From Chloroflexota bacterium (GTDB taxonomy: Bacteria; Chloroflexota; Dehalococcoidia; Lucifugimonadales; JACQOS01), in NCBI GenBank assembly GCA_016202425.1, contig JACQOS010000101.1, forward strand, positions 1 to 33,635: 33,635 bases of DNA. Reading direction: 5' to 3'. The notes under the pieces were generated by a model, which did not search any database, was not told the DNA's origin, and saw nothing but the letters and a program-made list of their open reading frames with translations. Positions 1 to 26,356 of the stretch are shown here, piece after piece; the stretch's first letter is position 1, and the number at the start of each line of letters is the position of its first letter. A program made the position numbers and the translations under genes.

Positions 1-113
1 CCCTGGGGCGCCGCGGAGGCTCCATGGCGGAGCCGGTGGAGACGGCCCGCCAGACGGCAGGGTCTTTCAGTTATCCATAAGAGAAGTCCCTGGCTCCTGT
101 AACCCCATCCTAG

Positions 114-167
114 CCTTCCCCCGCGAGCGGGGGAAGGGATTTCTCTCCCCCGTTGCACGGGGGAGAG
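114..167. repeat. Two adjacent GC-rich stem-loops upstream of the phosphorylase gene
   Basis: 114-137 has a 9-bp stem CCTTCCCCC/GGGGGAAGG. 143-167 has a 10-bp stem CTCTCCCCCG/CGGGGGAGAG. Same hairpin style as at 2229-2257, 5425-5448, 24727-24772, 33485-33508 and 33612-33635. Confidence 0.6.
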
Positions 168-309
168 TCAGAGAGGGGGTGAAGCCGACAATTGAAAGGC
201 CCTGCGCCAGACGGAGGCCGCTGGCCTTGGGCGGGGACCATGGACTATGATGGAAAACTGGAACGGGGCTTGACTTGCCCCCTCGGTTCCGGTAGATACA
301 GTGGGTCGC

Positions 310-2040
310 ATGCCACGCAAAGCCCAAGGGACGCAAGCCTCCCCCGTCGCCTACTTCTCCATGGAAGTCGCCCTGGACTCCGCCATGCCCACCTATAGCG
401 GAGGCCTGGGCGTGCTGGCGGGCGACCTCCTCCGGGCGGCCGCCGATGCCGGCATGGCCATGGTCGGAGTCACCCTCCTGTACCGCAAGGGGTATTTCCG
501 CCAGCACCTGGATGCCCAGGGGAAGCAGTCGGAGAGTCCGGCGGCGTGGTCGCCAGAACCGCTGCTCCAACCCATGGCGCCCCGGGTCCAGGTCTCTCTT
601 GAAGGCCGACCGGTGACGATACGGGCATGGCGCTCGCTGATGCGGGGAGTCTCGGGAGGCACCGTGCCGGTCTATTTCCTGGACACTGCCCTGCCGGAAA
701 ACAGCCCCTGGGATCAGGCCATCACCGACCACCTGTACGGAGGGGACGACCGCTACCGCCTGTGCCAGGAGACGGTTCTCGGCATGGGAGGGGTGGCGAT
801 GCTGCGCGCCCTGGGGTACGAGAGGGTCCAGGCTTTCCACATGAACGAGGGGCACTCCGCCCTTCTGGGCCTGGCCCTGCTGGAGGAGCAGACCTGGGGC
901 CGGGGCCTTGCCTCCGCGACACCCGAGGACGTGGAAACGGTACGCCAGCGGTGTGTCTTCACGACCCACACGCCGGTCCGCGCCGCCCACGACCGGTTCC
1001 CGTTGAGTATCGCGACGCAGGTCCTTGGGAGAGAGCGGGTCAATGCCCTGCTGGCTGCCGGGTGCTGCGACAACAGCAGCCTGGACATGACCTACCTGGC
1101 CCTCTCCCTCTCCCGGTACATCAACGGCGTCGCCATGCTCCACCGGGCTACCTCCGCCGCCCTGTTCCCCGATTTTCCCATCAATGCCATCACCAACGGC
1201 GTCCACGCCGTGACCTGGACCTCGTACCCCTTCCGCCGCCTCTACGACCGTCACATCCCGGACTGGCGGCTAGACAACCGCTACCTGCGGCACGCCGTGG
1301 GAATTCCCGTCGAGCAGATCCAGGAAGCTCACGCCGCCGCCAAGGGCGAGCTTCTTACCGAGGTGTCGCGCCGGACAGGGACTCGCCTTGATCCTTCCGC
1401 TCTGACCCTGGGGTTCGCCCGGCGGGCCACCGCATACAAGAGGCATGACCTGCTCCTCAGCGACCCCGAGCGCCTCCGCCGCATCGCGCGACAGCAAGGG
1501 CCCCTTCAGGTGGTCTACGGGGGCAAGGCCCACCCCCGGGACGAGGAGGGCAAGGCCATGATCCAGCGGGTCTTCCAGGCCGCCGCCGCTCTTCGGGACG
1601 CGGTCCGCTTTGTTTACGTTGAGGATTACGACATGGCTATCGCCCAATACCTGTGCGCTGGGGTGGACCTCTGGCTCAACACCCCGCAAAAGTACCAGGA
1701 GGCCTCGGGCACCAGTGGCATGAAGGCCGCCCTGAACGGCGTCCCCAGCCTGAGCGTCCTGGATGGCTGGTGGGTGGAAGGGCGCGTGGAAGGCGTGACG
1801 GGGTGGGCCATTGGCGATGACCACCCCAGCGACACCCCGCCGGACCGAGAGACCGCTTCCCTCTACGACAAGCTGGAGTACGTCATTCTTCCCATGTTCA
1901 CCTCCAGGCCCCTGGCCTTCGCCCAGGTCATGCGCTCGGCCATTGCCCTGAACGGCTCGTTCTTCAACGCCCAGCGCATGGTCCACCAGTACGCGGAGCG
2001 CGCCTACGCCCCGAATACCAAGCTAGCCCGTCCCCAATGA
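310..2040 (+). CDS. glgP: Alpha-glucan (glycogen/maltodextrin) phosphorylase, short GT35 type
   Basis: Frame of ORF 301..2040. N-terminus [28 protein letters not shown] is typical of the alpha-glucan phosphorylase family. The PLP-lysine motif [14 protein letters not shown] is present. ATG at 310 is preferred over GTG at 301, but the start is uncertain. Confidence 0.9.
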
Positions 2041-2257: not shown

Positions 2258-2408
2258 TACAGGGAGTGAGGGTTTCCCGAATAGCCTCTAGTGACGGGGC
2301 GTTCAAAGTTTTTTCAGGGCCACCCGCCACCTGTTCAGGCGCCGTTCAGGCGATGCCAACACAATGGCCGCATCCCCAACCCATGGTCGGAGGGAGGAGG
2401 CAACCAGC

Positions 2409-3893
2409 GTGAGCAAGGACCTCAGATCGTTCCTCGCCCAAGTCAAGGAAGCCGATGCCAAAGGGCTTCTCCAGGAGACCGGCTACGTCGAGGTCGGCCG
2501 GCGCATCAACCCCCACCTGGAGATAGCCCTCCTTCGGGAGAAACTGGCCCACGAGGGCCGCTTCCCCGTCATTTTCTGTCCGGAGGTCGAGGGCAGCACC
2601 ATGCCCATCGTCCTGAACCTGGATGTCTCCCGGGAGCTGCATGGCCTCTCGCTGGGCCTTGACCCTTCCCGGTGGACAGACCGGGACCTGCAGCGGGAGT
2701 ACAAGAAGCGACTGGATGAGCGCAAGCCCACCAAACGAGTCCCTGCCTCCCGGGCCCCGGTCAAGGAGGTCATCATCAAGGGCGCAGACGTTGACCTCGC
2801 CCGCCTCCCCATCCCCCAGAGCGCCGTCCCTCAGGCGGGGAAGTACATCACCCCAGGATGCATGATCTGCCGGGACCCTGAGACAGGGACCCTCAACGTG
2901 GGCGTCTACCGCCACCAAGTGAAGGGGAAGAACCTCCTGGGCGCCATGATCAACCCCCTCCACGACGCTGCCCCCATCGCCTGGCGCTATGCCCAGATGG
3001 GCAAGCCCATGGAGGTGGCCATCGTGCTGGGGCACCACCCCGCCGTGGGCACCGCCGCCCTCGCCCGGGGCAGCCTGGGCGACTTCAGCGAGCTGGACGT
3101 GGCGGGAGGCATCCTGGGAGAGCCCCTGGAGGTCGTCCAGGGGGAGACCGTGGAGCTGGATGTGCCGGCAGCCGCGGAGATCATCATCGAGGGGGTCATA
3201 GACGACCCCCGTCCTTCCAGCACCGACGGGCCGTTCCCCGAGTGGACCCACTACGGTAGGGGCAACAAGCCCGCCTACCTCATCCGCGTCACCGCCATCA
3301 CCATGCGCCACGACGCCATCTACCATGACCTGGTCACCACCGACCGGGGCCGCGGCGGCTGGGGCGGCTACAACACCATCCGAACCTTCAATGCCGTCAA
3401 GCTGGCCGTGCCCACCGTCCGCCAGATCAGGCTCTGGCTCGGCATCACGTGGGTCCAGATCACCAAGCGCGTCGAAGGCGAGGGGAAGCTGGCGGCGTTT
3501 GCCGCCATGACGGCCGAGGAGCACAACCAGATCATCGTGGTCGTGGACGACGATATCGACCTCTGGAGCGAGCGGGACCTGGGGCTGGCCCTCAGCCGAA
3601 GGCTGGTGGGCGACCGGGGCATTGACATCATCTCCCGCATCACCAGCGACCACCTGAACCCCACCTCCTACAACGAGAACCGGGACCCGGGCATCGAGCT
3701 GGGACCCATGGGCAGCAGGGTCCTCATAGACGCCACCCGGCCTCTGAACCTGCAGTGGCACACCCGGATCACCCCTGAGAACCGGTTCGAGTCCCTGTGG
3801 GACACCATGACCCTCGACGACTTCAAGCTGAGCCGGCCCGCTCGGCAGGCCCGGGAGGCCGTGGCGGCAGGGAATAGAGGAGGCCGCCGGTGA
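2409..3893 (+). CDS. ubiD: UbiD-family (prFMN-dependent) decarboxylase
   Basis: Frame of ORF 2364..3893. UbiD-like N-terminus (DLRSFLAQV...) and UbiD-like length. GTG at 2409 is preceded by GGGAGGAGG about 9 nt upstream, so it is preferred over ATG at 2364. The stop overlaps the ubiX start (GGTGA). Confidence 0.85.
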   Translation: MSKDLRSFLAQVKEADAKGLLQETGYVEVGRRINPHLEIALLREKLAHEGRFPVIFCPEVEGSTMPIVLNLDVSRELHGLSLGLDPSRWTDRDLQREYKKRLDERKPTKRVPASRAPVKEVIIKGADVDLARLPIPQSAVPQAGKYITPGCMICRDPETGTLNVGVYRHQVKGKNLLGAMINPLHDAAPIAWRYAQMGKPMEVAIVLGHHPAVGTAALARGSLGDFSELDVAGGILGEPLEVVQGETVELDVPAAAEIIIEGVIDDPRPSSTDGPFPEWTHYGRGNKPAYLIRVTAITMRHDAIYHDLVTTDRGRGGWGGYNTIRTFNAVKLAVPTVRQIRLWLGITWVQITKRVEGEGKLAAFAAMTAEEHNQIIVVVDDDIDLWSERDLGLALSRRLVGDRGIDIISRITSDHLNPTSYNENRDPGIELGPMGSRVLIDATRPLNLQWHTRITPENRFESLWDTMTLDDFKLSRPARQAREAVAAGNRGGRR

Positions 3894-4489
3894 GGGTCAT
3901 CGTCGGCATCACCGGCGCCAGCGGGTCCATCTACGGCCTGCGGCTGCTGGAGACCCTGGCCCAGGGCGGCGGCGTGGAGCTCCACCTGGTGGTGACCCAC
4001 AGCGGCAAGCGGGTCATCAAGCAGGAGACGGGCCGTAGCGTCGAGGAGGTCAGGAAGCTGGCCCACTTCTGGCACGACATCAACGACGTGGGGGCCTGCA
4101 TCGCCAGCGGCTCCTTCAAGCGGGACGGCATGGTGGTGGCCCCTTGCAGCATGAAGACCCTGGCCGCCATCGCCTGCTCGTACTCCGACAACCTCCTCTC
4201 CCGCGCCGCCGACGTTACCCTGAAGGAACGCAGGCCCCTCATCCTCATGGCAAGGGAGACGCCCCTCCACCTGGGCCACGTCCGAAACATGCTCCAGGCC
4301 ACCGAGATGGGTGCCATCCTCTTGCCCCCCATGCCCAGCTTCTATCACCATCCCAGGACCATCGATGACATCGTGAACCACACCGTGGGCAGGGTGCTGG
4401 ACCTCCTGGGGGTCCAGCACCAACTGTCCACCCCATGGTCTGGACTCGATGAGCTCTCCGTTGTGGACATCCCCCCTGGCGAGAGGTGA
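3890..4489 (+). CDS. ubiX: Flavin prenyltransferase UbiX (prFMN synthase)
   Basis: MRVIVGITGASGSIYGLRLLETL ... VAPCSMKTLAAIA motifs are typical of UbiX/Pad1. GTG start with an AGAGGAGG Shine-Dalgarno sequence. Translationally coupled to ubiD. Confidence 0.92.
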   Translation: MRVIVGITGASGSIYGLRLLETLAQGGGVELHLVVTHSGKRVIKQETGRSVEEVRKLAHFWHDINDVGACIASGSFKRDGMVVAPCSMKTLAAIACSYSDNLLSRAADVTLKERRPLILMARETPLHLGHVRNMLQATEMGAILLPPMPSFYHHPRTIDDIVNHTVGRVLDLLGVQHQLSTPWSGLDELSVVDIPPGER

Positions 4490-4591
4490 CTGACAGCCCA
4501 CCTCCTGGCTGAGCAGACCAGGAGCTGGCCCGCTGCGGAGAAGGCAGGAACCACCCAAGGGGCGGAACCCCCTGGGGAGAGGAGGAGTCCC

Positions 4592-5317
4592 GTGGCAGAG
4601 AGCGTGGTTTCCCTTCATGCCCGGTACCTTTGCGAGGGCAAGCCGGTGGACGGCTACCTGAGCCATCCCGTCGCCCGGGGCCCCTGGCCCGCCGTGGTCA
4701 TCCTCCACGAGTGGTGGGGCCTGGACGAGCATTTCCGGCAACTCAGTCAGCGCCTCGCCCGGGAAGGCTTCGTGGCCCTTGTCCCCGCCCTGTACGGCAA
4801 CAAGCTCACCTCCGACTGGAACGAGGCGGCCCTCCTGAAGACATCCCTGGACGTGGGCCGAGCCGTCCGGGAGACCATAGATGCCGTTCCCTATCTCCGT
4901 AGCTTGCCCTTCTGCTCCGGAGAGATGGGCGTCACCGGGTTCTGCATGGGCGGCGGCCTCGCCCTCTTCGCCGCCTGCCAGAGCCCAGAGTTCAAGGCGG
5001 GGGTCATCTACTACCCCAGCATGTTCCCCGAGCCCCAGGAGATGGCCAACGTGGCCGGGCCCCTCCAGTTCCACATCGGCACGGAGGACTTCTGGACATC
5101 CCGGGGAGAGATCGAGCGGATGACCCGGGTCCTGGAAGAGCACCACAAGCCCCACGAGGTGTACTGGTACGAGGGCGCCACCCACGCCTTCATGAACGAC
5201 GTCATGCGGCCCGACGTCTACCACCGGGAGGCCGCCGAGACCTCCTTTGCCCGCACCGTGGAGTTCTTCCACGCCCACCTGACCAAGCAGCCTTCGGGCA
5301 AGAGGGGCAGCCGGTAG
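4592..5317 (+). CDS. Dienelactone hydrolase family protein
   Basis: WPAVVILHEWWGL, the nucleophile motif GFCMGG, and the C-terminal YEGATHAFMND are characteristic of the DLH family. GTG start with a GAGGAGGAG SD. Confidence 0.85.
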   Translation: MAESVVSLHARYLCEGKPVDGYLSHPVARGPWPAVVILHEWWGLDEHFRQLSQRLAREGFVALVPALYGNKLTSDWNEAALLKTSLDVGRAVRETIDAVPYLRSLPFCSGEMGVTGFCMGGGLALFAACQSPEFKAGVIYYPSMFPEPQEMANVAGPLQFHIGTEDFWTSRGEIERMTRVLEEHHKPHEVYWYEGATHAFMNDVMRPDVYHREAAETSFARTVEFFHAHLTKQPSGKRGSR

Positions 5318-5344
5318 CCACCTTCCGCGTTCCTCCAGCACGCT

Positions 5345-5634: not shown

Positions 5635-7899
5635 ATGGTCACCGCCAAGAGTGTCGCTCTGCCCCGTGTGGATGCCCGAGAGAAGGTTACCGGTAGGGCT
5701 CTCTACACCGAGGACCTCCCCTCTCCCTACGGCGTGGCCTACTGCGCCATCCTTCACAGCCCCTACTCCCACGCTCGCATCCGCTCCATTCACGCCGAAA
5801 AAGCGGAGCGCCTACCGGGAGTCCTGGCCGTCCTGACCCGGGAGCATCTGGGGGCCACGAACCCCTACATCCCCTCGGGCGATCTTCCCCTCAACCAGCC
5901 CTTCATCGCCATGGACAAGGTCCGGCACGACGGCGAACCCGTCGCAGCGGTGGCCGCCGAGAGCCTGGCGGTGGCGCAGCACGCCCTGAGCCTCATCGAA
6001 GTGGACTACGAGGAGCTCCCGGCGGTGTTCGACGTCCGGGATGCCGTGGCCCCGAACTCGCCCCGTTTGCACGACGCCTTCACCTCCAACGTCTTCTGGG
6101 AGTACCGGTGGAACTGGGGCGACGCGGAGAAAGGCTTCCGTGAGGCGGACCGCGTCTTCGAGGACACCTACTACTTCCCCAGCGTCTTCCAGTACCCCAT
6201 GGAAAACGTTGGCGCGTGCTTCGCCGAGTTCCGGGGCGACGGCGTGGAGCTGGTGGCACCCATCCAGCATCCCTTCCCCCACCAGGATGAGATCGGCGAG
6301 ATGTTCGGCCTCCCCCCTGAGCGGGTGCGCATACGCATGCCCTACGTGGGTGGAGGCTTCGGAGCCAAGGAGCTCAAGACCAACCACCTCATCGCCCTCT
6401 GGCTCGCCCACAAGACCGGCCGCCCCATCATGACCGTCCCCTCCGCCTGGGAGAGCATCCGCACCGACGGTCGCCACCCGATGGTGTACAAGGTGAAAAC
6501 GGGGGTGAAGGCCGACGGGACCCTTTGGGCCCAGGACATCGAGCTCCTGGTGGACTCGGGCTCTTACGCCCGCGCCCTCAGCCAGATCGTAGCGCGTCTG
6601 GCTGTGGCCGGGGCGTGGGGCCCGTACCGCGTCCCCCACATGCGCATGGTGGGCTACGCCGTCCTCACCAACCGCGTCCCTCCTGGCGCTTTCCGCGCCC
6701 TTGCCAAGGCCCAGGTGACCTGGGGCTACGAGTGCAACCTGGACTCCATTGCCCGGGCCATGGGCGTGGACCCCATGGAGTTCCGTATCAAGAACTTCAT
6801 GCGCCGGGGCGACCCCATCGCGGAAGGGGCATCCCCCCTGGACACCGACTACGATGTCCTGCTGCGCAAGGCAGCCCAGGCCATCGGCTGGGATGGGCGC
6901 TCCAACCGCGTCGGCCCGGAGGCTGCAAAGCGCCCAACGGGCAAGGGACCCTTCCGCGGCCGTGGCCTCAGCACCACGTTCCGCCACGGCTTCTCCGAAG
7001 GCTCCAACAACTTCGTGACCGCCATCCTGGACAGGCACGGCAAAGTGAGGCTTCTTCACTCGGCCGCAGAGATCGGCATGGGGGTCTACGCTGTCATGAC
7101 GCGACTGGCGGCCCAGGCCATGGGCATCCCGGAGAACGACATCGAAGTGGGCCATGCGGATACCGAGCACCCCCACTCGGACGGCATTGGGAGCTCCCGG
7201 GACACCGTGTGCATGGGGAATGCCGTGCAGGATGCCTGCGAGGACCTGAAACGGGAGCTTCTGAGCGCCGCCGCCATGTGCAAGGGCGGGAGGCCCGAGG
7301 AGTGGCGGCTGGCCCAGGGCCGGCTGTGGCACGGCGAGCACGACTTCTCCCCGAGCGAGATCGTGTTGGGCACCCACCCCCGCTCAGGAGTGATCATGGG
7401 GAAAGGCTCCTATATCACGCCTCGCCGCAACAACCCTTTCCTGGGCATCGTCCCCCACTGGGAGGCGAGCGCGGGAGCGGCAGAGGTGGAGGTGGACCCC
7501 GAGACCGGGGAGGTGCGCCTCCTCAAGTTATCCACCGTGGCCGACGTGGGCAAAGCCATTCTGCCCGGCCCTTGCAAGGGGCAACTGGACGGTGGTGCCG
7601 TCATGGGCTTGGGGGATACCCTCTACGAAGAGGTGGTGTACCAGGAGGGTAGGCTCATCAACGGAGACCCCTTCCAGTACCGGCTGCCGGTGATGGCCGA
7701 TGTGCCGGAGGAGTTCCACTCCGTGATGGTGGAGAATGGGGACGGCCCGGGCCCTCTGGGGTCCAAGGGCATGGGCCAGAGCGGCGTGAGCACCGTGGCG
7801 CCCGCCATCGGCAACGCCGTCTACGACGCCATCGGCGTGCGCATCAAGGACCTCCCCATCACGCCGGAGAAGGTCCTGCGGGCCCTGGGCAAGCTCTGA
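5635..7899 (+). CDS. Xanthine dehydrogenase / aldehyde oxidase / CoxL-family molybdopterin-binding large subunit
   Basis: 754 aa. N-terminal PRVDAREKVTGRALYTEDL is the hallmark start of this family. GGGFG-type motif (VGGGFGAKE). ATG start with a GGAGGAGG SD. No adjacent [2Fe-2S] or FAD subunit genes are visible. Confidence 0.9.
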   Translation: MVTAKSVALPRVDAREKVTGRALYTEDLPSPYGVAYCAILHSPYSHARIRSIHAEKAERLPGVLAVLTREHLGATNPYIPSGDLPLNQPFIAMDKVRHDGEPVAAVAAESLAVAQHALSLIEVDYEELPAVFDVRDAVAPNSPRLHDAFTSNVFWEYRWNWGDAEKGFREADRVFEDTYYFPSVFQYPMENVGACFAEFRGDGVELVAPIQHPFPHQDEIGEMFGLPPERVRIRMPYVGGGFGAKELKTNHLIALWLAHKTGRPIMTVPSAWESIRTDGRHPMVYKVKTGVKADGTLWAQDIELLVDSGSYARALSQIVARLAVAGAWGPYRVPHMRMVGYAVLTNRVPPGAFRALAKAQVTWGYECNLDSIARAMGVDPMEFRIKNFMRRGDPIAEGASPLDTDYDVLLRKAAQAIGWDGRSNRVGPEAAKRPTGKGPFRGRGLSTTFRHGFSEGSNNFVTAILDRHGKVRLLHSAAEIGMGVYAVMTRLAAQAMGIPENDIEVGHADTEHPHSDGIGSSRDTVCMGNAVQDACEDLKRELLSAAAMCKGGRPEEWRLAQGRLWHGEHDFSPSEIVLGTHPRSGVIMGKGSYITPRRNNPFLGIVPHWEASAGAAEVEVDPETGEVRLLKLSTVADVGKAILPGPCKGQLDGGAVMGLGDTLYEEVVYQEGRLINGDPFQYRLPVMADVPEEFHSVMVENGDGPGPLGSKGMGQSGVSTVAPAIGNAVYDAIGVRIKDLPITPEKVLRALGKL

Positions 7900-7960: not shown

Positions 7961-8458
7961 CTACGCCCCCGTGCCCAGGCTGGCCGCACTCACAAACCTC
8001 CCCAGATTGGCATCATAGTACCGAGCGTTATAGAAGTACAGTCCCGTCCCGTCCAGCCTTTGCCCCGTGAACTTCCGGTCCGTCCCCAGCGTACCGTTGC
8101 TGGTCCTGGCCTCCCCGAAGGGCTTGTACCGCAGGCTGCTCACCTGTGCCCCGGTGCCGTCCGTGCTCACCAGGGAGCCGCCCAGGTGGTCCTGGTGCAC
8201 GTACTCCAGGGCCGTGCCCTTGCGCAAGGCCACCAGGCGCTCTCCCAGGTAGTAATACGTGGTGACCACTCCGGTGGTCACGTTCTTCTCGTAGTAGCGG
8301 TTGGCGTAGTGGACCGTCTGGCCACCCTCCAGCTTCTTTACTCGGTTCCCGTCGCCATCATACACGAACCTGGCACCGCCGCTCACCGCCGTCACGCGGT
8401 TGGGCACGTCCCAGGCGATGGCCTGGGAGCCCCGGGTGGTCATGTTGCCGTTGGCGTC
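7961..8458 (-). pseudogene. Orphan Rhs core fragment (YD repeats to ...NARYYDANLGRFVS), lacking the DPxGL motif and any toxin domain
   Basis: DANGN.., YDGDGNRVKK and YFYNARYYD..GRFVS are Rhs/YD core signatures. The reading frame opens right after a stop at 8474-8476. Homology to the 9475-9845 copy ends exactly after RFVS, and 8 unrelated codons and a stop follow. Confidence 0.85.
7989..8356 (-). repeat. Direct repeat A (Rhs core segment), paired with 9475-9845
   Basis: By-eye alignment at an offset of about 1486 bp. It includes a long perfect run starting CCCCGTGAACTTCCGGTCCGTCCCCAGCGTACCG (8063 / 9549). Confidence 0.85.
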
Positions 8459-8516: not shown

Positions 8517-8837
8517 CTAGAGTTTAAGAAAACGCTTGAGAAGCCGATATGCCCGGTAGGCGAGCGCACCGCCAACCAAACTAACAACTGCGGCAACCCC
8601 ACCGAGCACAATTTTCCCCATGACCGTAGCTGACGAAGCGGCGATCCCAGTCAAGGCTGAGACAAATGCAGCAAAAGGGTAATATGCTCGCACAAACTTC
8701 TCCATCGGCCGCCTCTTCGCAGCTAGCCAAACAGTTGGCATCACAACTGTCAGTACAAAGGTCAGTCCGATAGCAAGAGCTACGCGAATGTCTTCTCTGG
8801 AGATCCCGGTTGCCATAATGCCTATGAGTAGGTCCAC
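8517..8837 (-). CDS. Small polytopic membrane protein, putative cognate immunity protein 1
   Basis: 106 aa with about 3 hydrophobic helices and a basic C-terminus (AYRAYRLLKRFLKL). It lies 48 nt downstream of the Rhs-CT stop. It is a homolog of ORF 9891..10223, sharing PT(V/I), KFVR.Y.P and Y.L(L/V)KR(F/L)LK. Lower G+C than the flanks. Confidence 0.7.
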   Translation of the reverse strand: MDLLIGIMATGISREDIRVALAIGLTFVLTVVMPTVWLAAKRRPMEKFVRAYYPFAAFVSALTGIAASSATVMGKIVLGGVAAVVSLVGGALAYRAYRLLKRFLKL

Positions 8838-8885: not shown

Positions 8886-9767
8886 TTAACTAAAAAGGCC
8901 TTCCCATTGCGGAATAACTGATTCACTGTATATCGCAATTGTTACCGACCATCCTCCAACAAAAACGGAAACCTGTGTCGTAGCAGTTATTGGAAGGGCT
9001 ACAAACCAACCTATAGGTCCCGCAGCTATAGCTGGTGGGTAGGCGAAGATCAACACGCCGGCGACCGCGGTACCAGCGAGGGCTGGCACCAACGCCTCAA
9101 GGGTCTCAAGGGGTGTCAGCACTAGGTTAAACTCTGGCTGACGGTCCGATGTTGAGGGCCGTGCATCGTCTAGGAGTTGCGAAACAGCAGGCTGAATACC
9201 CCCTTGGGCCGCGATGTCTGCTGCCACGAACTGCTGGTGCTCAAATTCAATCTGCGCCCCGAGGCCGTTGATGATGAGCAGGGTTTGCGGGGGTGGGGCT
9301 TCACCTTGCTGCGACAGGTCATACGCCTCCTGCTCCGCTTTCCGCACCTTCGCCTCGTCTTCCGGGCGGTGGTGTAACCCTGTGGGGTCAGTGTACTTGA
9401 GCGGGTTGTTCACGACATAGCTGTACCGACTCAGGCCCTGGGGATCTCTCAGGCGTGGAACAACGCTATCCGGGCTCACAAACCTGCCGATCTGGGGGTC
9501 GTAGTATCTGGCGTTATAGAAATACAGTCCCGTCCCATCCAGCCGCTGCCCCGTGAACTTCCGGTCCGTCCCCAGCGTACCGTTGCTGGTCCTGGCCTCC
9601 CCGAAGGGCTTGTACCGCAGGCTGGCCACCGTGGCCCCAGCGCCGTCCGTGCTCACCAGGGAGCCGCCCAGGTGGTCCTGGTAGACGTACTCCAGGGCTG
9701 TGCCCTTGCGCAAGGCCACCAGGCGCTCTCCCAGGTAGTAGTACGTGGTGACCACTCCGGTGGTCAC
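8886..9767 (-). CDS. Orphan Rhs C-terminal module: core end + DPxGL + about 160-aa C-terminal toxin-like domain with a hydrophobic tip
   Basis: RYYDPQIGRFVSPDS and NNPLKYTDPTGL form the Rhs core terminus. GTG at 9767 is the first start codon, but Rhs homology in the same frame continues up to a stop at 9846-9848 (DADGNLVKKLEGG...). No N-terminal Rhs shell is present. Confidence 0.85.
   Translation of the reverse strand: MTTGVVTTYYYLGERLVALRKGTALEYVYQDHLGGSLVSTDGAGATVASLRYKPFGEARTSNGTLGTDRKFTGQRLDGTGLYFYNARYYDPQIGRFVSPDSVVPRLRDPQGLSRYSYVVNNPLKYTDPTGLHHRPEDEAKVRKAEQEAYDLSQQGEAPPPQTLLIINGLGAQIEFEHQQFVAADIAAQGGIQPAVSQLLDDARPSTSDRQPEFNLVLTPLETLEALVPALAGTAVAGVLIFAYPPAIAAGPIGWFVALPITATTQVSVFVGGWSVTIAIYSESVIPQWEGLFS
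9085..9302 (-). repeat. Direct repeat C (N-terminal part of the toxin CT), paired with 10481-10698
   Basis: 218 bp with 5 mismatches by my manual count. Confidence 0.9.
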
Positions 9768-9845
9768 GTTCCTCTCGTAGTAGCGGTTGGCGTAGTGGAC
9801 CGTCTGGCCGCCCTCCAGCTTCTTTACCAGGTTACCATCGGCGTC
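9475..9845 (-). repeat. Direct repeat B (Rhs core segment), paired with 7989-8356
   Basis: See repeat A. Confidence 0.85.
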
Positions 9846-9890
9846 TTAGGACAACTGGCGCTGAGGCTTACAGGCTCTACGACAAAGCTT

Positions 9891-10223
9891 TCACTGCTTG
9901 AGCAAACGTTTGACAAGACGATAGATCGGGTAGGAGCCATAGCCCGCTGCTAAGGCCACAGGGCCGATTATTCCCATGACGACCAGCTTTTCTACTAGCT
10001 CAGAGGCTGTAACCACGACGCCTGCCTCTGCCGAAAGGAAAAGAGCCCATGGAACATACCGCCGGACAAACTTGTCCGGATTACCTTTGCGAATAGCGAT
10101 AACGATTGTTGGAAGGATCACTGTCAAAAAGAGGACAACCGTGGCAGTTAGCCCCATCATGATGTCGTCAGGCGTTAACTGTGTCAGTCGGTTTAAGCCT
10201 GTCATGACTCCTCCGACGAGCAT
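9891..10223 (-). CDS. Small polytopic membrane protein, putative cognate immunity protein 2
   Basis: 110 aa with about 3 hydrophobic helices. ATG start. It lies 49 nt downstream of the CT fragment stop. Divergent homolog of 8517..8837. Confidence 0.7.
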   Translation of the reverse strand: MLVGGVMTGLNRLTQLTPDDIMMGLTATVVLFLTVILPTIVIAIRKGNPDKFVRRYVPWALFLSAEAGVVVTASELVEKLVVMGIIGPVALAAGYGSYPIYRLVKRLLKQ

Positions 10224-10272: not shown

Positions 10273-10710
10273 CTACCGAGGCCGTTTGAATAGATCCATC
10301 CATTGCGGGATCACCGACTCACGTAGCACGAGCCCAGTACTAATCACTCCGCCAAAGAAGCTAACTGCTTGGGTAGTTGCCGTTACTGGCAACACGAAGA
10401 ACCATCCCACTGGCCCCATACTTATGACTGCAACATCGGCGGGAAGTAGGGCTACGACAACAACAGTACCCATGGCAAATGGCACCAACGCCTCAAGGGT
10501 CTCAAGGGGTGTCAGCACTAGGTTAAACTCTGGCTGACGGTCCGATGTGGAGGGCCGTGCATCGTCTAGGAGTTGCGAAACAGCAGGCTGAATACCCCCT
10601 TGGGCCGCGATGCCTGCTGCCACGAACTGCTGGTGCTCAAATTCAATCTGCGCCCCCAGGCCGCTGATGATCAGCAGGGTTTGCGGGGGTGGGGCTTCGC
10701 CTCTCTGCAC
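10273..10710 (-). CDS. Orphan Rhs-CT toxin fragment (no Rhs core), variant 2
   Basis: EAPPPQTLLIISGLGAQIEFEHQQFVAAGIAAQGGIQPAVSQLLDDARPSTSDRQPEFNLVLTPLETLEALVP is almost identical to the CT of 8886..9767. A divergent hydrophobic tip then follows. Homology stops at about 10698, 38 nt from the proS stop. Confidence 0.75.
   Translation of the reverse strand: MQRGEAPPPQTLLIISGLGAQIEFEHQQFVAAGIAAQGGIQPAVSQLLDDARPSTSDRQPEFNLVLTPLETLEALVPFAMGTVVVVALLPADVAVISMGPVGWFFVLPVTATTQAVSFFGGVISTGLVLRESVIPQWMDLFKRPR
10481..10698 (-). repeat. Direct repeat D, paired with 9085-9302
   Basis: See repeat C. Confidence 0.9.
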
Positions 10711-10735
10711 TCCCCTTCACAGAATTCTCAGACCC

Positions 10736-12436
<1,701 letters not shown>

Positions 12437-12613
12437 CCCTGGCCGCATTCCTTCTTTCAAGACGCCACGAGCAAGTTCGCCTGCGCGGTCACCCGCGGGC
12501 AGCCCCAGTCCGGCCGGGGCGCCCCAAGGGCCCCCCTGGCGGTAGGATAGCAGAGCAGCGGGTACGAGGCCAGGATGCTTGCGCCGGGCCACGGCGCCCC
12601 AGGGAGCCGGCCC

Positions 12614-13342
12614 TCAGCCTCCGGGGTCCTTGGCCACGGAGTAGTCGTACCCTCTCCAACCCTTCACGGCGTCGTGGCGGCGGATGTCCAGCACCTTCCC
12701 GCCGTTCGCCAGGAGGAACGCCGTCACCTCCCCGCGCCGTATCCCGAACACCTCCATGCGCGGTCCGTTGGCCACGCGGCAATACCAGCCGAGAACCGCG
12801 CTAGCAAGGCCGATGAACGGCATCAGCCACGGGAGGGGCTCGCTGGGCAACTGGAAGACCGCCACGCCTCCTGGCCCGAGGACGCGCAGGAACTCCCTGA
12901 TGTAGCCCAGGGCATAGCGAGGCTCCATGTGCTGAAGGGTGATGTTGGAGTACACGAAGTCGAAGGCGCTGTCCGGGAAGAGCCCCAGGTCCTCCCTGTC
13001 GTTGACAACGTACCTGCACTTGCCCCCGTGGCGATTGTACTGCTCGGCCAGCCTCACCATGGAAGGTGCGATATCCACGCCGACCACCTCATCGAAATAG
13101 CTGGCCAGCGCCTGGGTCACCCTCCCTACCCCGCAGCCAAAGTCCAGGGCGACTCCCCGGCGTGGGCGCATCGGGAGGCGGTCCACACGCTCCATGACAC
13201 CGCTGATCTCCTGCTGCCCCGTGGCGAAGAACTCCGCCGACTCCCAACGCCTCCCCTTCTTGCCCGGAGCCCGCAAGATGGCCCAGAGGGGGTCAAGCTT
13301 CCCAAAGGCATCCCAGGATCGGCGCAGCTCTTTCAGGTCCAT
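12614..13342 (-). CDS. Class I SAM-dependent methyltransferase
   Basis: Motif I VALDFGCGVGRVT, followed by VVGVDIAPSMV. G+C looks native. Confidence 0.8.
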   Translation of the reverse strand: MDLKELRRSWDAFGKLDPLWAILRAPGKKGRRWESAEFFATGQQEISGVMERVDRLPMRPRRGVALDFGCGVGRVTQALASYFDEVVGVDIAPSMVRLAEQYNRHGGKCRYVVNDREDLGLFPDSAFDFVYSNITLQHMEPRYALGYIREFLRVLGPGGVAVFQLPSEPLPWLMPFIGLASAVLGWYCRVANGPRMEVFGIRRGEVTAFLLANGGKVLDIRRHDAVKGWRGYDYSVAKDPGG

Positions 13343-13403
13343 GGATGAGAGGCTGTTTACTTCGAAAGCGCGTAGCTACCCCTTCTCTTACCTGCCCATT
13401 CCT

Positions 13404-14318
13404 CTAGCACAAGGGATATCGCTGTCTTCTCTCTTTTAGGACAAGGGCGCCCGATCGAGTCCAGGTCAACTCTCTACCTATGAGTAACTCAAACATCCTG
13501 GCATGATGGGTATTCGTCATGGCCACTGCCGCCACCTGAAACGCGTGCGCTTGAGCCAGTTGCCGAATTTCGGGTGCATCGTCGTATGTCATCAAAAAGT
13601 CGCCAACAAGTGACTGAGCAATCCTGAATAGAGCCACGTGATCAAGGTCATTATGCGTGTAAAGACGAGTTCCAGCTCTCTTGCCACCAGCCGTGTAGGG
13701 GGGGTCAATGAAATACACTACGTCCGGCCGTGCAGCATACTGTCTCAAGACGTCCATCCCATCCCCTTCGATGAACCGAATGCGATGACGCAACTTATGG
13801 ATGTTAAGGATGCGTCTCTTCAAAGTCTCTGGGTACCAACGGGACCTTACCCCTTTGCCGTTTTCACCGTATCTCAGTAAGCTGGCTCCGGGTGCCAAGA
13901 TTCCACCCCTATTGACCCTGTTCCGAACGATCGTCTGAAAGGCCTTCTCCCGAAGGCTGGCAACTTGCCTCGCTAGCTCTTCTTGAACGGATTCCAGGGA
14001 AGGCTCAAACCCCGTGATCCTGTTGACTAGCCATTCGCAATCATCGCTCAAAACGGTTCTCCAGACGGCAGCCACTTGGTCGTCGAGTTCTACCATAGTG
14101 AGGGTGTCTACGAAATTCTCAAATACTGCGGTCAGGCCCACAATGGCACCCCCAGCGAACGGCTCAAGAAGTTCCTTAGGCCTCACGCGCTGGGATGCCA
14201 ACCATTGGCGGGCATATGGAACGAGCCAAGTCTTCCCTCCTGGATAGCGGAAGGGGCTCCTCTGTGGAACAGAGGCAACGTTGACTACATCCTTTCCGAT
14301 GAGAAGTAATTGGACCAT
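13404..14318 (-). CDS. DNA adenine (N6) methyltransferase, Dam-like D12 class
   Basis: FRYPGGKTWL, motif I EPFAGGA and motif IV IDPPY in alpha-class order. ATG at 14318 lies 4 nt after the endonuclease stop. The TTG at 14333 is the ORF-track start. G+C is visibly lower than in neighbouring genes. Confidence 0.88.
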   Translation of the reverse strand: MVQLLLIGKDVVNVASVPQRSPFRYPGGKTWLVPYARQWLASQRVRPKELLEPFAGGAIVGLTAVFENFVDTLTMVELDDQVAAVWRTVLSDDCEWLVNRITGFEPSLESVQEELARQVASLREKAFQTIVRNRVNRGGILAPGASLLRYGENGKGVRSRWYPETLKRRILNIHKLRHRIRFIEGDGMDVLRQYAARPDVVYFIDPPYTAGGKRAGTRLYTHNDLDHVALFRIAQSLVGDFLMTYDDAPEIRQLAQAHAFQVAAVAMTNTHHARMFELLIGRELTWTRSGALVLKERRQRYPLC

Positions 14319-14322
14319 AGAT

Positions 14323-15198
14323 TCACGGCTCAAACGCTAAGGGTTGGACGTCGGGTGCACCATGATTCTCGCCCTGCTTATCGAACTGCTCCTGAAGCTT
14401 CGCCAGGAAATCAGCCTCATCCCCTGGCTCCGGCTTAGTGATCTGGTCGAGAGCTGTTCCAAACTTAGTGTACACTTTTCGCTGTCTTTGAAGGAGGTAT
14501 CTTCGTGTCCTAGGGGAATACGCGGGCGTGTAAGTCAGCCACACCATCTCTGCCTGTTCTTGTGGTACCTCTTCAAGGAGTGGCAGGGTGTCGTACAAGT
14601 TCTCGTCCAAAGCAATGGCGATCTTTCTGTTCCAGGTGTGAAGAATGCCTCCCTTGTACAGTAGTTGGGGAGCTAGGCGCTTGCGAGAAGAGGAGAGGTA
14701 ATCAGGGCGTGGGTAACCAGGGCTACCTCTCCAGTCCATGCCGGCCCGTTTAACGGGATCATCCATGTAGTGCTGGAATGGCCGCCGGATGTTACCGGAG
14801 ATATAGAGAGCCTGGACCTCTAACGCCCCGTAGTCCAAGATCCGGCCGCGCTGGTCGTAGGAGACCAGCACGATGTCGACACTACCAGCAGCCTTGCCGT
14901 GCCGATCTTTCAATTCAACTTCGAACAAAGAGGTCCAATTCACATCGGGAGGGAAGAAGAAAGAGGCGGCGTCTTCTACGACAATCCAATCTTGCCGGAG
15001 CCGGATGGGGCAGATGATCACGACCCTTCCTTCATGAAACATGCTACATACCCCAAGAGGGTCCTCAGCATTATCCTTTGTGCAGTTAGCGGAGACGTTG
15101 TTGAAGGGACAAAGTCTACGTTTGCGATAGCGTTGCGCCTCTGGAGAGTGGTTGTTTACAGGGAATCCAAAGACCTCACCGAGCGGATGATTTCGCAT
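14323..15198 (-). CDS. Type II restriction endonuclease, NotI-like family
   Basis: The 3' third of ORF 14323..16251. The N-terminus GEVFGFPV...CPF..x..C.K....GVC.....IICPIR mirrors the NotI Cys4 metal-binding motif as I recall it. ALEVQALYISGN corresponds to NotI VLEIQTMDFHGS. ATG at 15198 is preceded by GGGGAAGAG. An alternative ATG lies at 15216. Confidence 0.75.
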   Translation of the reverse strand: MRNHPLGEVFGFPVNNHSPEAQRYRKRRLCPFNNVSANCTKDNAEDPLGVCSMFHEGRVVIICPIRLRQDWIVVEDAASFFFPPDVNWTSLFEVELKDRHGKAAGSVDIVLVSYDQRGRILDYGALEVQALYISGNIRRPFQHYMDDPVKRAGMDWRGSPGYPRPDYLSSSRKRLAPQLLYKGGILHTWNRKIAIALDENLYDTLPLLEEVPQEQAEMVWLTYTPAYSPRTRRYLLQRQRKVYTKFGTALDQITKPEPGDEADFLAKLQEQFDKQGENHGAPDVQPLAFEP

Positions 15199-15278
15199 GT
15201 CTCTTCCCCGGCGCATGGCTAAGGGCCCAAAATGTACTCCCGTATGGGCTACCGACGCTCCCCGCTCCACCCATCGCC

Positions 15279-16397
15279 CTACACCTTCTCCACCTCTTCC
15301 ATCAGGGCGGCGAGCATCTCCGCCTCCGGCACGACGCGCACCTTCTGCCCCTTGCGGAAGATAACGGCCCGTCCGGCCCCGGCGGCGATACCCACATCCG
15401 CGTCCTTGGCCTCGCCCGGGCCGTTCACCTCGCAGCCCATGACCGCGACCTTCACGTTCCTGTCCACGCCCTTGAGCAACGCGTCCACCGTGTTGGCAAG
15501 CTTGATCACGTCCACGTCCGCCCGGCCGCAGGAGGGACAGGCCACCAGGGTCGCGCCCTTCTGGCGCAGGTTCAGCGACTTGAGGATCTCGTAGCCGGCG
15601 AACACCTCCTCCCGAGGGTCGTCGGAGAGGGAGACCCGGAGGGTGTCTCCTATCCCCTCGTAGAGGAGCACGCCGATGCCGATAGCGCTGCGGATGCTTC
15701 CGGCCCTGGCGGTGCCTGCCTCGGTGATGCCCAGATGGAAGGGGTAAGGGACCAGCTCCGCCAGGCGGCGATATGCCTCCACGGTAGTGGGAACGTCGAA
15801 GGCCTTCAGAGAGACCTTGATGAGGTCGAAGTCCAGCGCCTCCAGGATGCCGATCTCCCACAGGGCCGTATCCACCATGTGGTCCACCAGCGAGTACTCC
15901 CCCTCCGACGCACCACCCGCTTTGGGCAGCAGGTTCACCTGGTCGCTCAGGCGGTGCAGGGCCCGCGTCTTGCCGATGGCGCCCACGGGAGGGAGGCTGC
16001 CGAAGTTCACGCCGATGCGAATGGGGACCTGCCGCTCCCCAGCCGCCCTGACCACCTGCTTCACCCGCTCCGCGTCGCGGATGTTGCCGGGGTTCAGGCG
16101 GAGGCAGTCCACGCCGCCGGCGATGGCCTCCAGGGCGAGCTGGTAGTGGAAGTGGATGTCCGCCACCAGGGGAATCCCGGTCTGGCGCTTGATCTCCTTC
16201 AGTGCCCTGGCAGCCTCCAGGTCCGGGACGGCGCACCGGACGATCTCGCACCCAACCTCCTCCAGGCCCTTGATCTGCGCTACCGTGGCCTTCACGTCCC
16301 GGGTATCGGTCTTGGTCATGGACTGGACGGTGATAGGTGCGTCGCCCCCCACCTTCACGGGGCCCACCCAGACCGGTTTTGTAGGCCGACGCTTCAT
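15279..16397 (-). CDS. ispG: 4-hydroxy-3-methylbut-2-en-1-yl diphosphate synthase (flavodoxin) IspG/GcpE
   Basis: KPVWVGPVKVGGDAPITVQSMT... and the C-terminal CPSCGR + GCEVNGPGE 4Fe-4S motifs. ATG at 16397 with a GGAAGGGA SD. Confidence 0.93.
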   Translation of the reverse strand: MKRRPTKPVWVGPVKVGGDAPITVQSMTKTDTRDVKATVAQIKGLEEVGCEIVRCAVPDLEAARALKEIKRQTGIPLVADIHFHYQLALEAIAGGVDCLRLNPGNIRDAERVKQVVRAAGERQVPIRIGVNFGSLPPVGAIGKTRALHRLSDQVNLLPKAGGASEGEYSLVDHMVDTALWEIGILEALDFDLIKVSLKAFDVPTTVEAYRRLAELVPYPFHLGITEAGTARAGSIRSAIGIGVLLYEGIGDTLRVSLSDDPREEVFAGYEILKSLNLRQKGATLVACPSCGRADVDVIKLANTVDALLKGVDRNVKVAVMGCEVNGPGEAKDADVGIAAGAGRAVIFRKGQKVRVVPEAEMLAALMEEVEKV

Positions 16398-16422
16398 GAA
16401 AGCCGTCCCTTCCCGCTGCCTT

Positions 16423-17799
16423 CTACGCAGACGGCGTCTGACAAAACCGGTGAACAAGCCTCTGCGCGCCCTCAGTTGAAGCCCAGGCCGCGTCATCCGG
16501 GCCAACCTGGTTGGGACAGATGGCACAGACATTCGATTGAATAAGTTTCTGATGTAACACCTTGGCGTCGCGCAAGAGCGCATCCGGCTCGTTTGTGGCC
16601 TTGCCCAATGCCTGCGTCCACAATTCGAATCGCCTTCTCAGCTTGCCAGGATCAGTAGTACCTTCAGAAAACGCGTCAACAAACCGGTCCAGGACCATTA
16701 CATCGACAAGACGACGGCGTACTGCCATAGCGAAAAGCTTCCTATCCGCGTCCGTTAGTGAGCTCCAAGTCTTCTCAAGCAGCGCTCCGGCCTGAGCAAA
16801 CCCTACCATTTCTAGCTCAAAGAGGAGGTCATTCCGCGGCTTCCCCCACCGGCCAGGAGGGTTACCCGTGTCTCCACGCCTAAATAGACGAAATGCTTCC
16901 TGCCCAAAGACACGGTCGACCCAAGTGCAGGCGATTGCGAACTCCTGTCGGAATCTCTCCGCACTAACAGGATCAAGGTTCCGGTTAGTTTCCATCTCAT
17001 CATTTAGAAAGGACCGAAATGGCCTACGATATCTATCCATCCTGTGAAGCAACGCAAAAACCCGCAACACCAGCTCCCTGTGGCGCATTCTTTTGTCAGG
17101 TTCGTTCTTTTTCCAGAGGGTCAAGAAACGGTAGTCTTCACCCAACGAGGCAATCAACTTGTTGTATGGTCCCCTATACAAGCAATTCCTGAGTTCCTGG
17201 CTGTTCAAACTCATGGAACCTTGGTTCAGCCGCGCGAAGAGGGCGTATTTCATGTCCGAGTGCACACTTTTGGGAAGTCGGATCACCGAAAGTTCCGTAT
17301 CCCATAACTTGGAGCGATCCTCTATGCTTAGCGCAACGACTCCTTTGCCATTAAGCTCAGGCAAAACTTCCAATGCGCGCAGGGTGAGCGGGGTTAACAC
17401 GGTGTACTTTGTCTGCGTTTTTCCAGCAGCAGCTGTCGGACCCTGCAAAACCGGCTGCAGAAAACGAAACACGGTCTCTAGACGTTGATGTCCATCAATC
17501 ACCGCCCAGAGTCCATCCTGCTCTTCAGCTATGAAAATCGCCGGTGTAGGAAGGCGCAGTAACAGTGACTCTATGTAACGGCTTGCGCGGGTTGGGTCCC
17601 ACACATAGTGGCGCTGGAATTCTGGCTCTAAGATCAATTCTTGGCCCAAGTAGCGTTGCCACACTTCTCTGACCTTTACTTTGCTTTCCTCCCACGCGAC
17701 GCTCCGAAATTCCTCGGGGACATGCAAAGGAACGTATTCTTCCTCCTCCCGCTCCCGCTCCGCCCAACTTTCATCCTCCCCCTTAGCGCCCTTGACCAT
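16423..17799 (-). CDS. Stand-alone DUF262 (ParB/Srx-like, GmrSD N-terminal type) protein with an unassigned C-terminal region ending in CxxC...HxxC
   Basis: PEFQRHYVWD...ESLLLRLPTPAIF...VIDGHQRLET is the DUF262 signature. I did not recognise a DUF1524/HNH-type His-Me motif. The C-terminus is CAICPNQ..x..VHRFC. ATG at 17799 has a GGAGGG SD; the TTG at 17826 is the ORF-track start. Visibly lower G+C. Confidence 0.8.
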   Translation of the reverse strand: MVKGAKGEDESWAEREREEEEYVPLHVPEEFRSVAWEESKVKVREVWQRYLGQELILEPEFQRHYVWDPTRASRYIESLLLRLPTPAIFIAEEQDGLWAVIDGHQRLETVFRFLQPVLQGPTAAAGKTQTKYTVLTPLTLRALEVLPELNGKGVVALSIEDRSKLWDTELSVIRLPKSVHSDMKYALFARLNQGSMSLNSQELRNCLYRGPYNKLIASLGEDYRFLTLWKKNEPDKRMRHRELVLRVFALLHRMDRYRRPFRSFLNDEMETNRNLDPVSAERFRQEFAIACTWVDRVFGQEAFRLFRRGDTGNPPGRWGKPRNDLLFELEMVGFAQAGALLEKTWSSLTDADRKLFAMAVRRRLVDVMVLDRFVDAFSEGTTDPGKLRRRFELWTQALGKATNEPDALLRDAKVLHQKLIQSNVCAICPNQVGPDDAAWASTEGAQRLVHRFCQTPSA

Positions 17800-17846
17800 G
17801 TCTACCCTCCAAAGCCAGCTTCTCAACTAACAATTTTCAGAGCGCC

Positions 17847-26175: not shown

Positions 26176-26356
26176 GGTGCCGCCGGTAGTAGTCGGCCGT
26201 CATCCTGAGGACCGATTGGATCCTCCGTTCCCTCGTTTCCGGCCTCTTTGCTGTTGTGACGAGAGCAACGTAGCGACTCCGACACGATGGCTTGAGCTTC
26301 TCCCACATCATGACCATGCCGTCCCTAGCAGGGTGTTGAAAAACCCTTTCGACCAT
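26150..26356 (-). CDS. Short YdeI/OmpD-associated (OmdA)-like ORF, either an intact small gene or a 5'-truncated remnant
   Basis: W..LKPSCRSRYVALVTTAKRPETRERRIQSVL matches the L.PS.RR.Y..WI..AK..ETR.RRI pattern of that family. ATG at 26356 is preceded by AAGGGGGA. It overlaps the recombinase 3' end by 32 nt and the miaB start by 26 nt. Confidence 0.45.
   Translation of the reverse strand: MVERVFQHPARDGMVMMWEKLKPSCRSRYVALVTTAKRPETRERRIQSVLRMTADYYRRHHEGRHQKT

Follow-up and report, generated by a model that had tools for sequence, protein, structure and literature searches.

Orphan Rhs cassettes of a Chloroflexota bacterium carry an undescribed family of hydrophobic C-terminal tails encoded next to small membrane proteins

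Rhs-derived cassettes downstream of proS

We analysed a 33,635-nucleotide stretch of DNA from a Chloroflexota bacterium (Dehalococcoidia; Lucifugimonadales; JACQOS01; assembly GCA_016202425.1, contig JACQOS010000101.1), hereafter the window, with the focus on an open reading frame (ORF) at 8886..9767 of the minus strand that encodes a truncated Rhs core followed by an autoproteolysis motif and a C-terminal region with a strongly hydrophobic tail. The ORF lies in a 2.8-kb island with a G+C content of 48-60%, compared with about 68% in the flanks, which separates a molybdopterin dehydrogenase gene (5635..7899, plus strand) from proS (10736..12592, minus strand). Along the direction of transcription the island consists of cassette B, a 110-aa gene, cassette A (with the ORF in question), a 106-aa gene and a third core fragment.

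Features of the island and their positions in the window.
10273..10710, minus strand: C-terminal fragment of cassette B, 145 aa, without Rhs core and without linker
10480..10708, minus strand: pre-tail segment of cassette B, the same as in cassette A
10276..10479, minus strand: hydrophobic tail of cassette B (tail B), diverged from tail A
9891..10223, minus strand: immunity candidate 2 (P0013), 110 aa, paired with tail B
8886..9767, minus strand: ORF with the Rhs C-terminal region, 293 aa, listed start GTG at 9767
9375..9845, minus strand: 5'-truncated Rhs core fragment of cassette A, ending in the autoproteolysis motif NNPLKYTDPTGL
9303..9374, minus strand: charged linker HHRPEDEAKVRKAEQEAYDLSQQG, the first residues freed by cleavage after DPTGL
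9084..9302, minus strand: 73-aa pre-tail segment EAPPPQTLLI...LETLEALVP, near-identical in cassettes A and B
8889..9125, minus strand: putative hydrophobic toxin domain of cassette A, about 79 aa, the family-conserved part
8889..9083, minus strand: variable 65-aa tail ALAGTAVAG...SVIPQWEGLFS (tail A), rich in Ala, Gly, Val and Thr
8886..8888, minus strand: stop codon of the cassette A ORF
8517..8837, minus strand: immunity candidate 1, 106 aa, three predicted membrane spans, paired with tail A
7961..8443, minus strand: third Rhs core fragment (fragment C), 160 aa, last element of the island

The core of cassette A was recognised by the TIGR03696 (Rhs_assc_core) profile at aa 52-131 of the 8886..9767 ORF with an E-value of 9e-23 and 80.5 bits (cut-off 32.5), and it aligns to the C-terminal plug of the solved Rhs/Tc proteins TccC3, YenC2, RhsA and the Tse5 shell. 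Both aspartate positions of the plug (RLD and SPD) and the DPxGL of cassette A match the TccC3/YenC2 plug, and its cleavage motif NNPLKYTDPTGL has the PxxxxDPxGL pattern of Rhs autoproteolysis. The frame is open from the stop codon at 9846-9848, with further in-frame stops upstream, and holds only about 150 aa of core. Fragment C shares 90% DNA identity over 300 nt with the core of cassette A (direct repeat D1), matches TIGR03696 partially (profile positions 1-52 of 76) and breaks off before the DPxGL, while cassette B starts 25 nt past the proS stop codon with in-frame stops just upstream. Neither a large Rhs ORF nor a YD-repeat shell nor an N-terminal delivery domain was found in the window, the largest ORFs of which are housekeeping genes. 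Cassettes A and B are orphan toxin-immunity cassettes without an Rhs shell, i.e. spare modules. The 8886..9767 ORF is an orphan truncated at its 5' end, and the window offers it neither a shell nor an N-terminal delivery domain, so in its present form it is not an active effector. A scan of the locus for promoters and terminators scored no better than shuffled sequences and gave no convincing promoter-like sites.

A sequence-only reading of the window had divided the region after DPTGL into a charged linker, a segment of roughly 75 aa and a hydrophobic tail of roughly 65 aa, and these three parts could be located at 9303..9374, 9084..9302 and 8889..9083, respectively; the range flagged there (8886..9302) runs exactly from the E of EAPPP through the stop codon on the minus strand. 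The putative toxin domain, which overlaps the end of the pre-tail segment and includes the whole tail, comprises LVLTPLETLEALVP plus ALAGTAVAGVLIFAYPPAIAA, GPIGW, FVALPITATTQVSVFVGGWSVTIAIY and SESVIPQWEGLFS.

The tail defines a very rare sequence family

The C-terminal region gave no match in Pfam (E <= 1), NCBIfam, PADLOC, PHROGs or, as a single sequence, among PDB sequences; the tail profile matched 0 PDB chains at E <= 10, and the six family members described below gave only noise against Pfam at E <= 10. The earlier observation that no nuclease, deaminase, ADP-ribosyltransferase or peptidase signature is recognisable thus held in all of these collections. When 5.8 billion proteins were searched through a word index, the C-terminal region found only the window's own protein, and the tail profile, for which the candidate list was saturated by hydrophobic words, found only one relative (P0003). 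Of the 8 hits that an exhaustive HMMER search obtained from 1.84 billion cluster representatives, 4 are true relatives (P0003 to P0006), 3 are repetitive false positives and 1 is the self-hit. In JGI metagenome contigs nothing was found in one scan with the tail sub-alignment and one with the immunity sub-alignment, and neither the viral contigs scanned nor a tblastn search against plasmids gave a match.

The true relatives align only to profile positions of about 88-163, which correspond to the short helix LTPLETLEALVP and the hydrophobic tail. The region in front of the tail consists in these proteins of unrelated, low-complexity linkers rich in Gly, Pro and Asp, and the 73-aa pre-tail segment had no homologue among the 1.84 billion representative proteins beyond the window. 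The sequence-only reading had called this segment conserved, which applies to the two copies in the window (229 nt, 97% identity) but not to the outside relatives. Because only the tail is conserved in the six copies, with unrelated low-complexity linkers upstream, the tail is the likely functional module, and the family domain, as delimited by the alignment, is the ~80-residue tail and not the 73-aa middle segment.

In the six-sequence alignment of the tail, T, A, P, G, L, G, G, GG, T, P and W columns are invariant, and the motifs are kept in both A and B. Small or polar helix positions are invariant or nearly so (G in ALAG, T/Q in TATTQ, GG and T), and the motif at the C-terminus is V-I-P-x-W. 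P0004 and P0006 have an Rhs core with DPSGH or DPTGH ahead of the tail. Three of the four relatives were looked up and all were singleton clusters; two of the four are annotated as Chloroflexi/Chloroflexota and the other two carry no label, and all family members with an identified source are Chloroflexota. All data searched contained six toxin copies and seven partner genes. The tail family is therefore undescribed and very rare; of the earlier suggestion of an undescribed polymorphic-toxin domain family, the novelty of the sequence family stands, with only four outside relatives, while the kind of toxin is already known from Tse5-CT/Tsi5 (PMC9637101, PMC10684867).

Among the outside loci, a DDE transposase fragment lies directly upstream of the truncated Rhs fragment P0004 (137..559 of Logan contig SRR29054607_237527, L002), and this copy seems to be cut by an insertion sequence. 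Just upstream of P0005, on the Chloroflexi contig JACQTW010000036.1 (L003) from a metagenome-assembled genome (MAG), we observed a different Gly-rich C-terminal region ending in WWPF (11..715), which has the linker EPQSPSTVAAEQDAAAASASGTLAAVG in common with P0005 and is followed by a gene for an 86-aa membrane protein (855..1115). The array of P0005 thus seems to hold another hydrophobic toxin-immunity cassette, one that is unrelated to the first.

Hydrophobicity and predicted structure of the tail

The grand average of hydropathy (GRAVY) over 65 aa is 1.13 for tail A and 1.25 for tail B. As background we used 5634 windows of 65 aa from 17 Pfam-supported genes of the stretch, among which two reach the value of tail A, both in the intramembrane protease RseP, and none that of tail B. 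Because so few background windows match tail A, and both of these are RseP membrane spans, the hydrophobicity of the tail is not a matter of chance composition. The earlier description of the tail as strongly hydrophobic is thereby put on a numerical footing, at the level of the RseP membrane spans.

AlphaFold2, run with the six-sequence alignment, predicted helices at residues 86-94, 96-117 and 120-161 of the C-terminal region with a predicted local distance difference test (pLDDT) score of 76-88; in this model the long tail helices are joined into a predicted hairpin by the conserved turn AAGPxGW. The pre-tail segment was modelled at pLDDT 37-47 and the linker with a low-confidence helix (residues 5-22), and the single-sequence prediction of the whole ORF reached pLDDT 33.

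Several known identities were considered and rejected. GxxxGxxxG is present in 0 of the 6 tails and no GxxxG is conserved, which leaves out a glycine-zipper toxin. A colicin-type pore-forming domain was dismissed, as the Pfam searches described above returned no match for the C-terminal region and, noise aside, none for the six members. For ClyA/HlyE, two tails gave sub-threshold matches (E 0.41-2.5, 7.8 bits against a cut-off of 25), and for the AhlB/SmhB fold Foldseek gave E 3.5-8 with a probability <= 0.18; both concern the hairpin region only and most likely reflect composition.

Small membrane proteins encoded next to the tails

A homologue of the partner gene is located next to all six toxin copies, 30-240 nt downstream, and it encodes 100-105 aa in the four outside loci. 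The hydrophobic segments of immunity candidate 1 were found at residues 20-38, 55-73 and 76-94, and the partner alignment has three hydrophobic stretches and two basic segments, one in the loop after the first span and one at the C-terminus, a pattern that fits a three-span membrane protein with a cytoplasmic C-terminus. The earlier view of the immunity candidates as small polytopic membrane proteins agrees with the three spans predicted for the 106-aa gene and with the homologues beside every relative. Profile-profile comparison did not relate the tail and the immunity protein to each other.

We compared the pairwise identities of tails and partners for the six pairs and obtained a Mantel r of 0.71, which among all 720 permutations only the identity permutation reaches. 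With six pairs, this correlation shows co-inheritance at least and does not prove co-adaptation. The gene arrangement, with a variable putative toxin at the C-terminus and a candidate immunity gene downstream, is that of a polymorphic toxin. A profile search with the partner retrieved the known partners and one more (P0014, 97 aa; 217..510 of L085, a 535-nt ENA contig), which stands alone after a housekeeping-like ORF without a toxin tail upstream and looks like an orphan immunity gene.

A recombination breakpoint at the start of the tail

The direct repeat D2 (9084..9312 and 10480..10708; 229 nt, 97% identity) is located inside both C-terminal coding regions. Over the 222 nt of the pre-tail segments the DNA of cassettes A and B is 96% identical, with three synonymous and three non-synonymous codon differences in 74 codons. 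Near position 9100, within some 30 nt of where the hydrophobic tail begins, the match between the cassettes breaks down abruptly, from 96% to about 50% identity, and it does not recover across the immunity gene. Tails A and B share 49% identity at the protein level and 51% at the DNA level, and immunity candidates 1 and 2 are 38% identical in protein. As read from these sequences, such a breakpoint is the signature of a diversifying toxin-immunity unit and suggests that recombination within the C-terminal region swaps only the hydrophobic tail and its immunity gene. The pre-tail segment is probably a spacer and a recombination handle, i.e. a second homology block. In this scheme the tail and its immunity gene would form the exchangeable unit, and the 229-nt pre-tail segment together with the 300-nt Rhs core repeat would serve as homologous handles for swapping.

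Proposed mechanism and alternative explanations

From this anatomy we infer a toxin that is delivered to neighbouring cells, inserts into the membrane and depolarises it, together with its immunity protein. We consider it rather probable that the last ~80 residues are a membrane-inserting, probably oligomerising and depolarising toxin and that the three-span partner neutralises it there. The domain would begin with a short amphipathic helix, continue with a hairpin of two long helices rich in Ala, Gly, Val and Thr and end in the conserved, putatively interfacial motif E-V/S-I-P-x-W-x-x-F/L. As part of a complete Rhs protein, the domain would be severed by cleavage behind DPTGL and kept unfolded in the Rhs shell, to be released at a neighbouring cell and inserted into its cytoplasmic membrane. 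There, probably as an oligomer, it would let ions pass and the membrane potential would collapse, while in the producer the ~100-aa three-pass partner would bind the hairpin inside the membrane and so give protection.

Several results weigh against this reading. The sequence-only reading had proposed a membrane-inserting tip, which agrees with the helices predicted by AlphaFold2 and with Kyte-Doolittle means of 1.6-2.8 for 19-mers of the tails, but in most tails the summed Hessa values of the best 19-mers amount to +2 to +3.7 kcal/mol, so that spontaneous insertion would be marginal, and the tail helices are weaker than the spans of the immunity proteins (-1.1 to +2.4). Such marginal values would suit a peptide that travels in a soluble carrier and inserts afterwards; they are also a caveat. 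The structure prediction and the covariation rest on six toxin sequences, a very shallow alignment, and the Mantel correlation could stem from shared inheritance instead of co-adaptation. Foldseek returned nothing significant for the tail hairpin in the PDB. None of its matches was below E 3, and the highest-ranking ones (E 3.5-10) were to ATP synthase c subunits, at their transmembrane hairpins, and to the AhlB/SmhB alpha-pore-forming toxins, at their membrane hairpin. No significant similarity of the tail to characterised pore formers was found in sequence or structure (PDB, Pfam, Foldseek). The glycine zipper is absent as well. With regard to delivery, none of the copies of the family sits on a complete Rhs protein: they are orphans, are interrupted by an insertion sequence or run into the end of their contig.

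The most probable alternative is that the copies in the window are decayed remnants from which no toxin is made and that, if anything, only the immunity genes matter, as a shield from neighbours with an intact toxin. We regard this as a serious possibility, though somewhat short of even; it concerns the state of the locus and not the nature of the family, and it is compatible with a membrane toxin. The truncations described above speak for it (no shell or N-terminal domain among the largely housekeeping long ORFs of the window, the start of B 25 nt past the proS stop, the core of A closed at 9846 and fragment C cut before the DPxGL), as do the lack of convincing promoter-like sites and the immunity homologue that stands alone after a housekeeping-like ORF on L085. 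However, both toxin frames are intact over 145-293 codons, all conserved family motifs are kept in both copies, and Rhs and contact-dependent inhibition (CDI) loci normally keep a functional reservoir of orphan cassettes (PMC3482391).

Alternatively, the tail might form no pore by itself and instead bind, block or hijack a specific target membrane protein, with the immunity protein masking the contact. A marginally hydrophobic hairpin with strictly conserved T, Q, W and P suits a specific helix-packing partner better than a generic disruptor of membranes, and the CDI ionophore toxins require AcrB, SecY or YciB for membrane assembly (PMC11630599). In those toxins, however, the use of a receptor sits in a separate N-terminal entry domain (PMC11630599), whereas the pre-tail region here is not conserved in the family, and we found no evidence for any target; we judge this explanation unlikely.

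It is very improbable that the 73-aa pre-tail segment is the real toxic domain and the hydrophobic tail a module for membrane translocation or targeting. The 96% identity of the segment between the cassettes, with its few codon differences (three synonymous and three non-synonymous in 74 codons), would fit this assignment, and two-domain C-terminal regions are common among polymorphic toxins (PMC11630599). The near-identity includes synonymous sites, however, and so points to recent recombination or duplication and not to selection on the protein; the segment has no homologue among the 1.84 billion representatives, the relatives carry low-complexity linkers at its place, and its predicted structure is poor (pLDDT 37-47). 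We rejected the middle segment as the toxin on the missing homologues and the identical synonymous sites. Polymorphic toxins vary in their toxic part, which covaries with the immunity gene, and here it is the tail that does so. We find it just as improbable that the tail serves, at the C-terminus of a surface protein, to anchor it in the membrane or to sort it, with a downstream membrane partner that is not an immunity protein, for although a hydrophobic hairpin at the extreme C-terminus adjoins a small membrane protein gene, the tail lies past the Rhs autoproteolysis site, which frees the C-terminal fragment (PMC10684867), and duplicated diverging cassettes with paired partners and orphan core fragments are a hallmark of polymorphic toxins and not of anchors.

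Comparison with known toxin systems

The closest functional analogue of the tail and its partner is the Tse5-CT/Tsi5 pair of P. aeruginosa. Tse5-CT (PA2684) is an Rhs C-terminal fragment without predicted function that inserts spontaneously into lipids and forms ion-selective pores, causing depolarisation, and Tsi5 (PA2683) is a two-span membrane immunity protein (PMC9637101, PMC10684867). Both Tse5-CT and the tail are located in an Rhs C-terminal fragment after a DPxGL plug (aspartyl autoprotease), have no predicted enzymatic function and are hydrophobic, with transmembrane or amphipathic helices that in the case of the tail are predicted, and both are adjacent to a gene for a small integral membrane protein. 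They differ in that Tse5-CT has 149 aa and several helices, whereas the conserved module here has about 80 aa and a single predicted hairpin, in the number of predicted spans of the immunity protein (two in Tsi5, three here) and in the setting, Tse5 being delivered by type VI secretion from a Gram-negative host while the tail family is found in Chloroflexota, with no full-length carrier seen. The tail profile gave 0 PDB matches at E <= 10 and hence none to Tse5, whose entry 8cp6 is in the library, with the listing of its C-terminal chain unconfirmed and the Tse5-CT structure unresolved.

The CDI ionophores (CdiA-CT EC93 family) dissipate the membrane potential, and their hydrophobic, polymorphic CdiI proteins protect only against the cognate toxin (PMC11630599). 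Like the region studied here, they have a two-part C-terminal region with the hydrophobic part (ionophore or tail) at the C-terminal end. Their carrier, in contrast, is CdiA with type V secretion and a VENN motif instead of Rhs with DPTGL, and their N-terminal part is the variable one, whereas here the hydrophobic part varies and the N-terminal part is locally conserved. Compared by description, the CDI ionophore is a predicted five-helix bundle with a putative glycine zipper, while the tail has two long helices and a short one in the model and no zipper. Short C-terminal hydrophobic helical regions are also known from TelE and EsxX (type VII) and from TspA, which permeabilise or depolarise membranes in single-membrane bacteria (PMC10434224, PMC12744356). 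TelE and EsxX have LXG N-terminal domains, type VII export and a GxxxGxxxG motif that is absent from the six tails, which are Rhs-borne, and the TelE immunity protein TipE is soluble (DUF5085), in contrast to the predicted membrane protein here.

The island itself resembles the orphan rhs/cdi cassettes of Zhang et al. (2012), in which 5'-truncated cores are followed by toxin regions and immunity genes and the repeated core DNA recombines (PMC3482391): truncated cores are arrayed, each with a C-terminal region and an immunity gene, and the cores are repeats. Unlike typical orphan arrays, it has no main rhs gene upstream and abuts the proS stop codon, and a second homology block (229 nt, 97%) inside the C-terminal region sets off a smaller exchangeable unit.

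Significance of the tail family

The concept of a hydrophobic Rhs toxin with a membrane immunity protein is already established; what is new is the sequence family, which extends known biology. If the tail is toxic as proposed, it would add a new, very small family to the few membrane-depolarising polymorphic toxins, and Rhs proteins would bear such cargo also outside Proteobacteria, in the poorly studied and largely uncultured Dehalococcoidia-like Chloroflexota. We know of nothing reported on cell-to-cell antagonism in these bacteria, and a literature search combining Dehalococcoidia, Rhs and toxin found no paper. An 80-residue hairpin with a 100-residue membrane partner would, if true, be a compact model for the neutralisation of a toxin within the bilayer, and the drop from 96% to 50% identity illustrates modular exchange, i.e. 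the swap of a sub-module, inside a C-terminal toxin region.

A more far-reaching proposal, which we make tentatively and hold to be short of an even chance, is that the tails represent a minimal ~80-residue, two-helix, Rhs-borne membrane toxin with a mechanism unrelated to glycine-zipper or colicin-type toxins. They would then be the first interbacterial toxin family specific to Chloroflexota/Dehalococcoidia, in bacteria without type VI secretion, with a second level of diversification in which only the hairpin and its membrane immunity gene are swapped behind a homology block within the C-terminal region.

Genomic surroundings of the island

A proS-based scan of genome contigs gave 80 Dehalococcoidia/Chloroflexota loci (best ProS identity to Dehalococcoidia MAGs 71%), and in 0 of these 80 was a tail, an immunity gene or an Rhs fragment found near proS. 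On the other side of proS, between this gene and rseP (17847..18932), a block of defence genes occupies 12614..17826 of the minus strand.

Genes of the defence block.
16423..17826, minus strand: GmrSD-type restriction enzyme
14323..16251, minus strand: NotI-like restriction endonuclease
13404..14333, minus strand: D12-class N6-adenine methyltransferase
12614..13342, minus strand: S-adenosylmethionine (SAM) methyltransferase

In related Dehalococcoidia no more than about 1.2-2.5 kb separate proS from the rseP homologue upstream of it, and because of this short gap the block looks like an insertion, with both sides of proS being a variable hotspot.

Upstream of the molybdopterin dehydrogenase gene, genes for a UbiD-family decarboxylase and a UbiX-type flavin prenyltransferase (2364..4489, plus strand) overlap by four bases (3890..3893); the dienelactone hydrolase and molybdopterin dehydrogenase genes come after this pair and make up an ordinary metabolic context of the island. 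Very long ORFs run antisense to supported genes such as proS and ubiD (10610..12550, plus strand; 2346..3761 and 3668..5341, minus strand; and others), and these are the usual by-product of a G+C content of about 68% and not genes. Furthermore, an ORF at 26325..27548 of the minus strand contains two domains known from large serine recombinases, Recombinase and Zn_ribbon_recom; a resolvase catalytic domain was not reported for it, and it may be a remnant of a mobile element.

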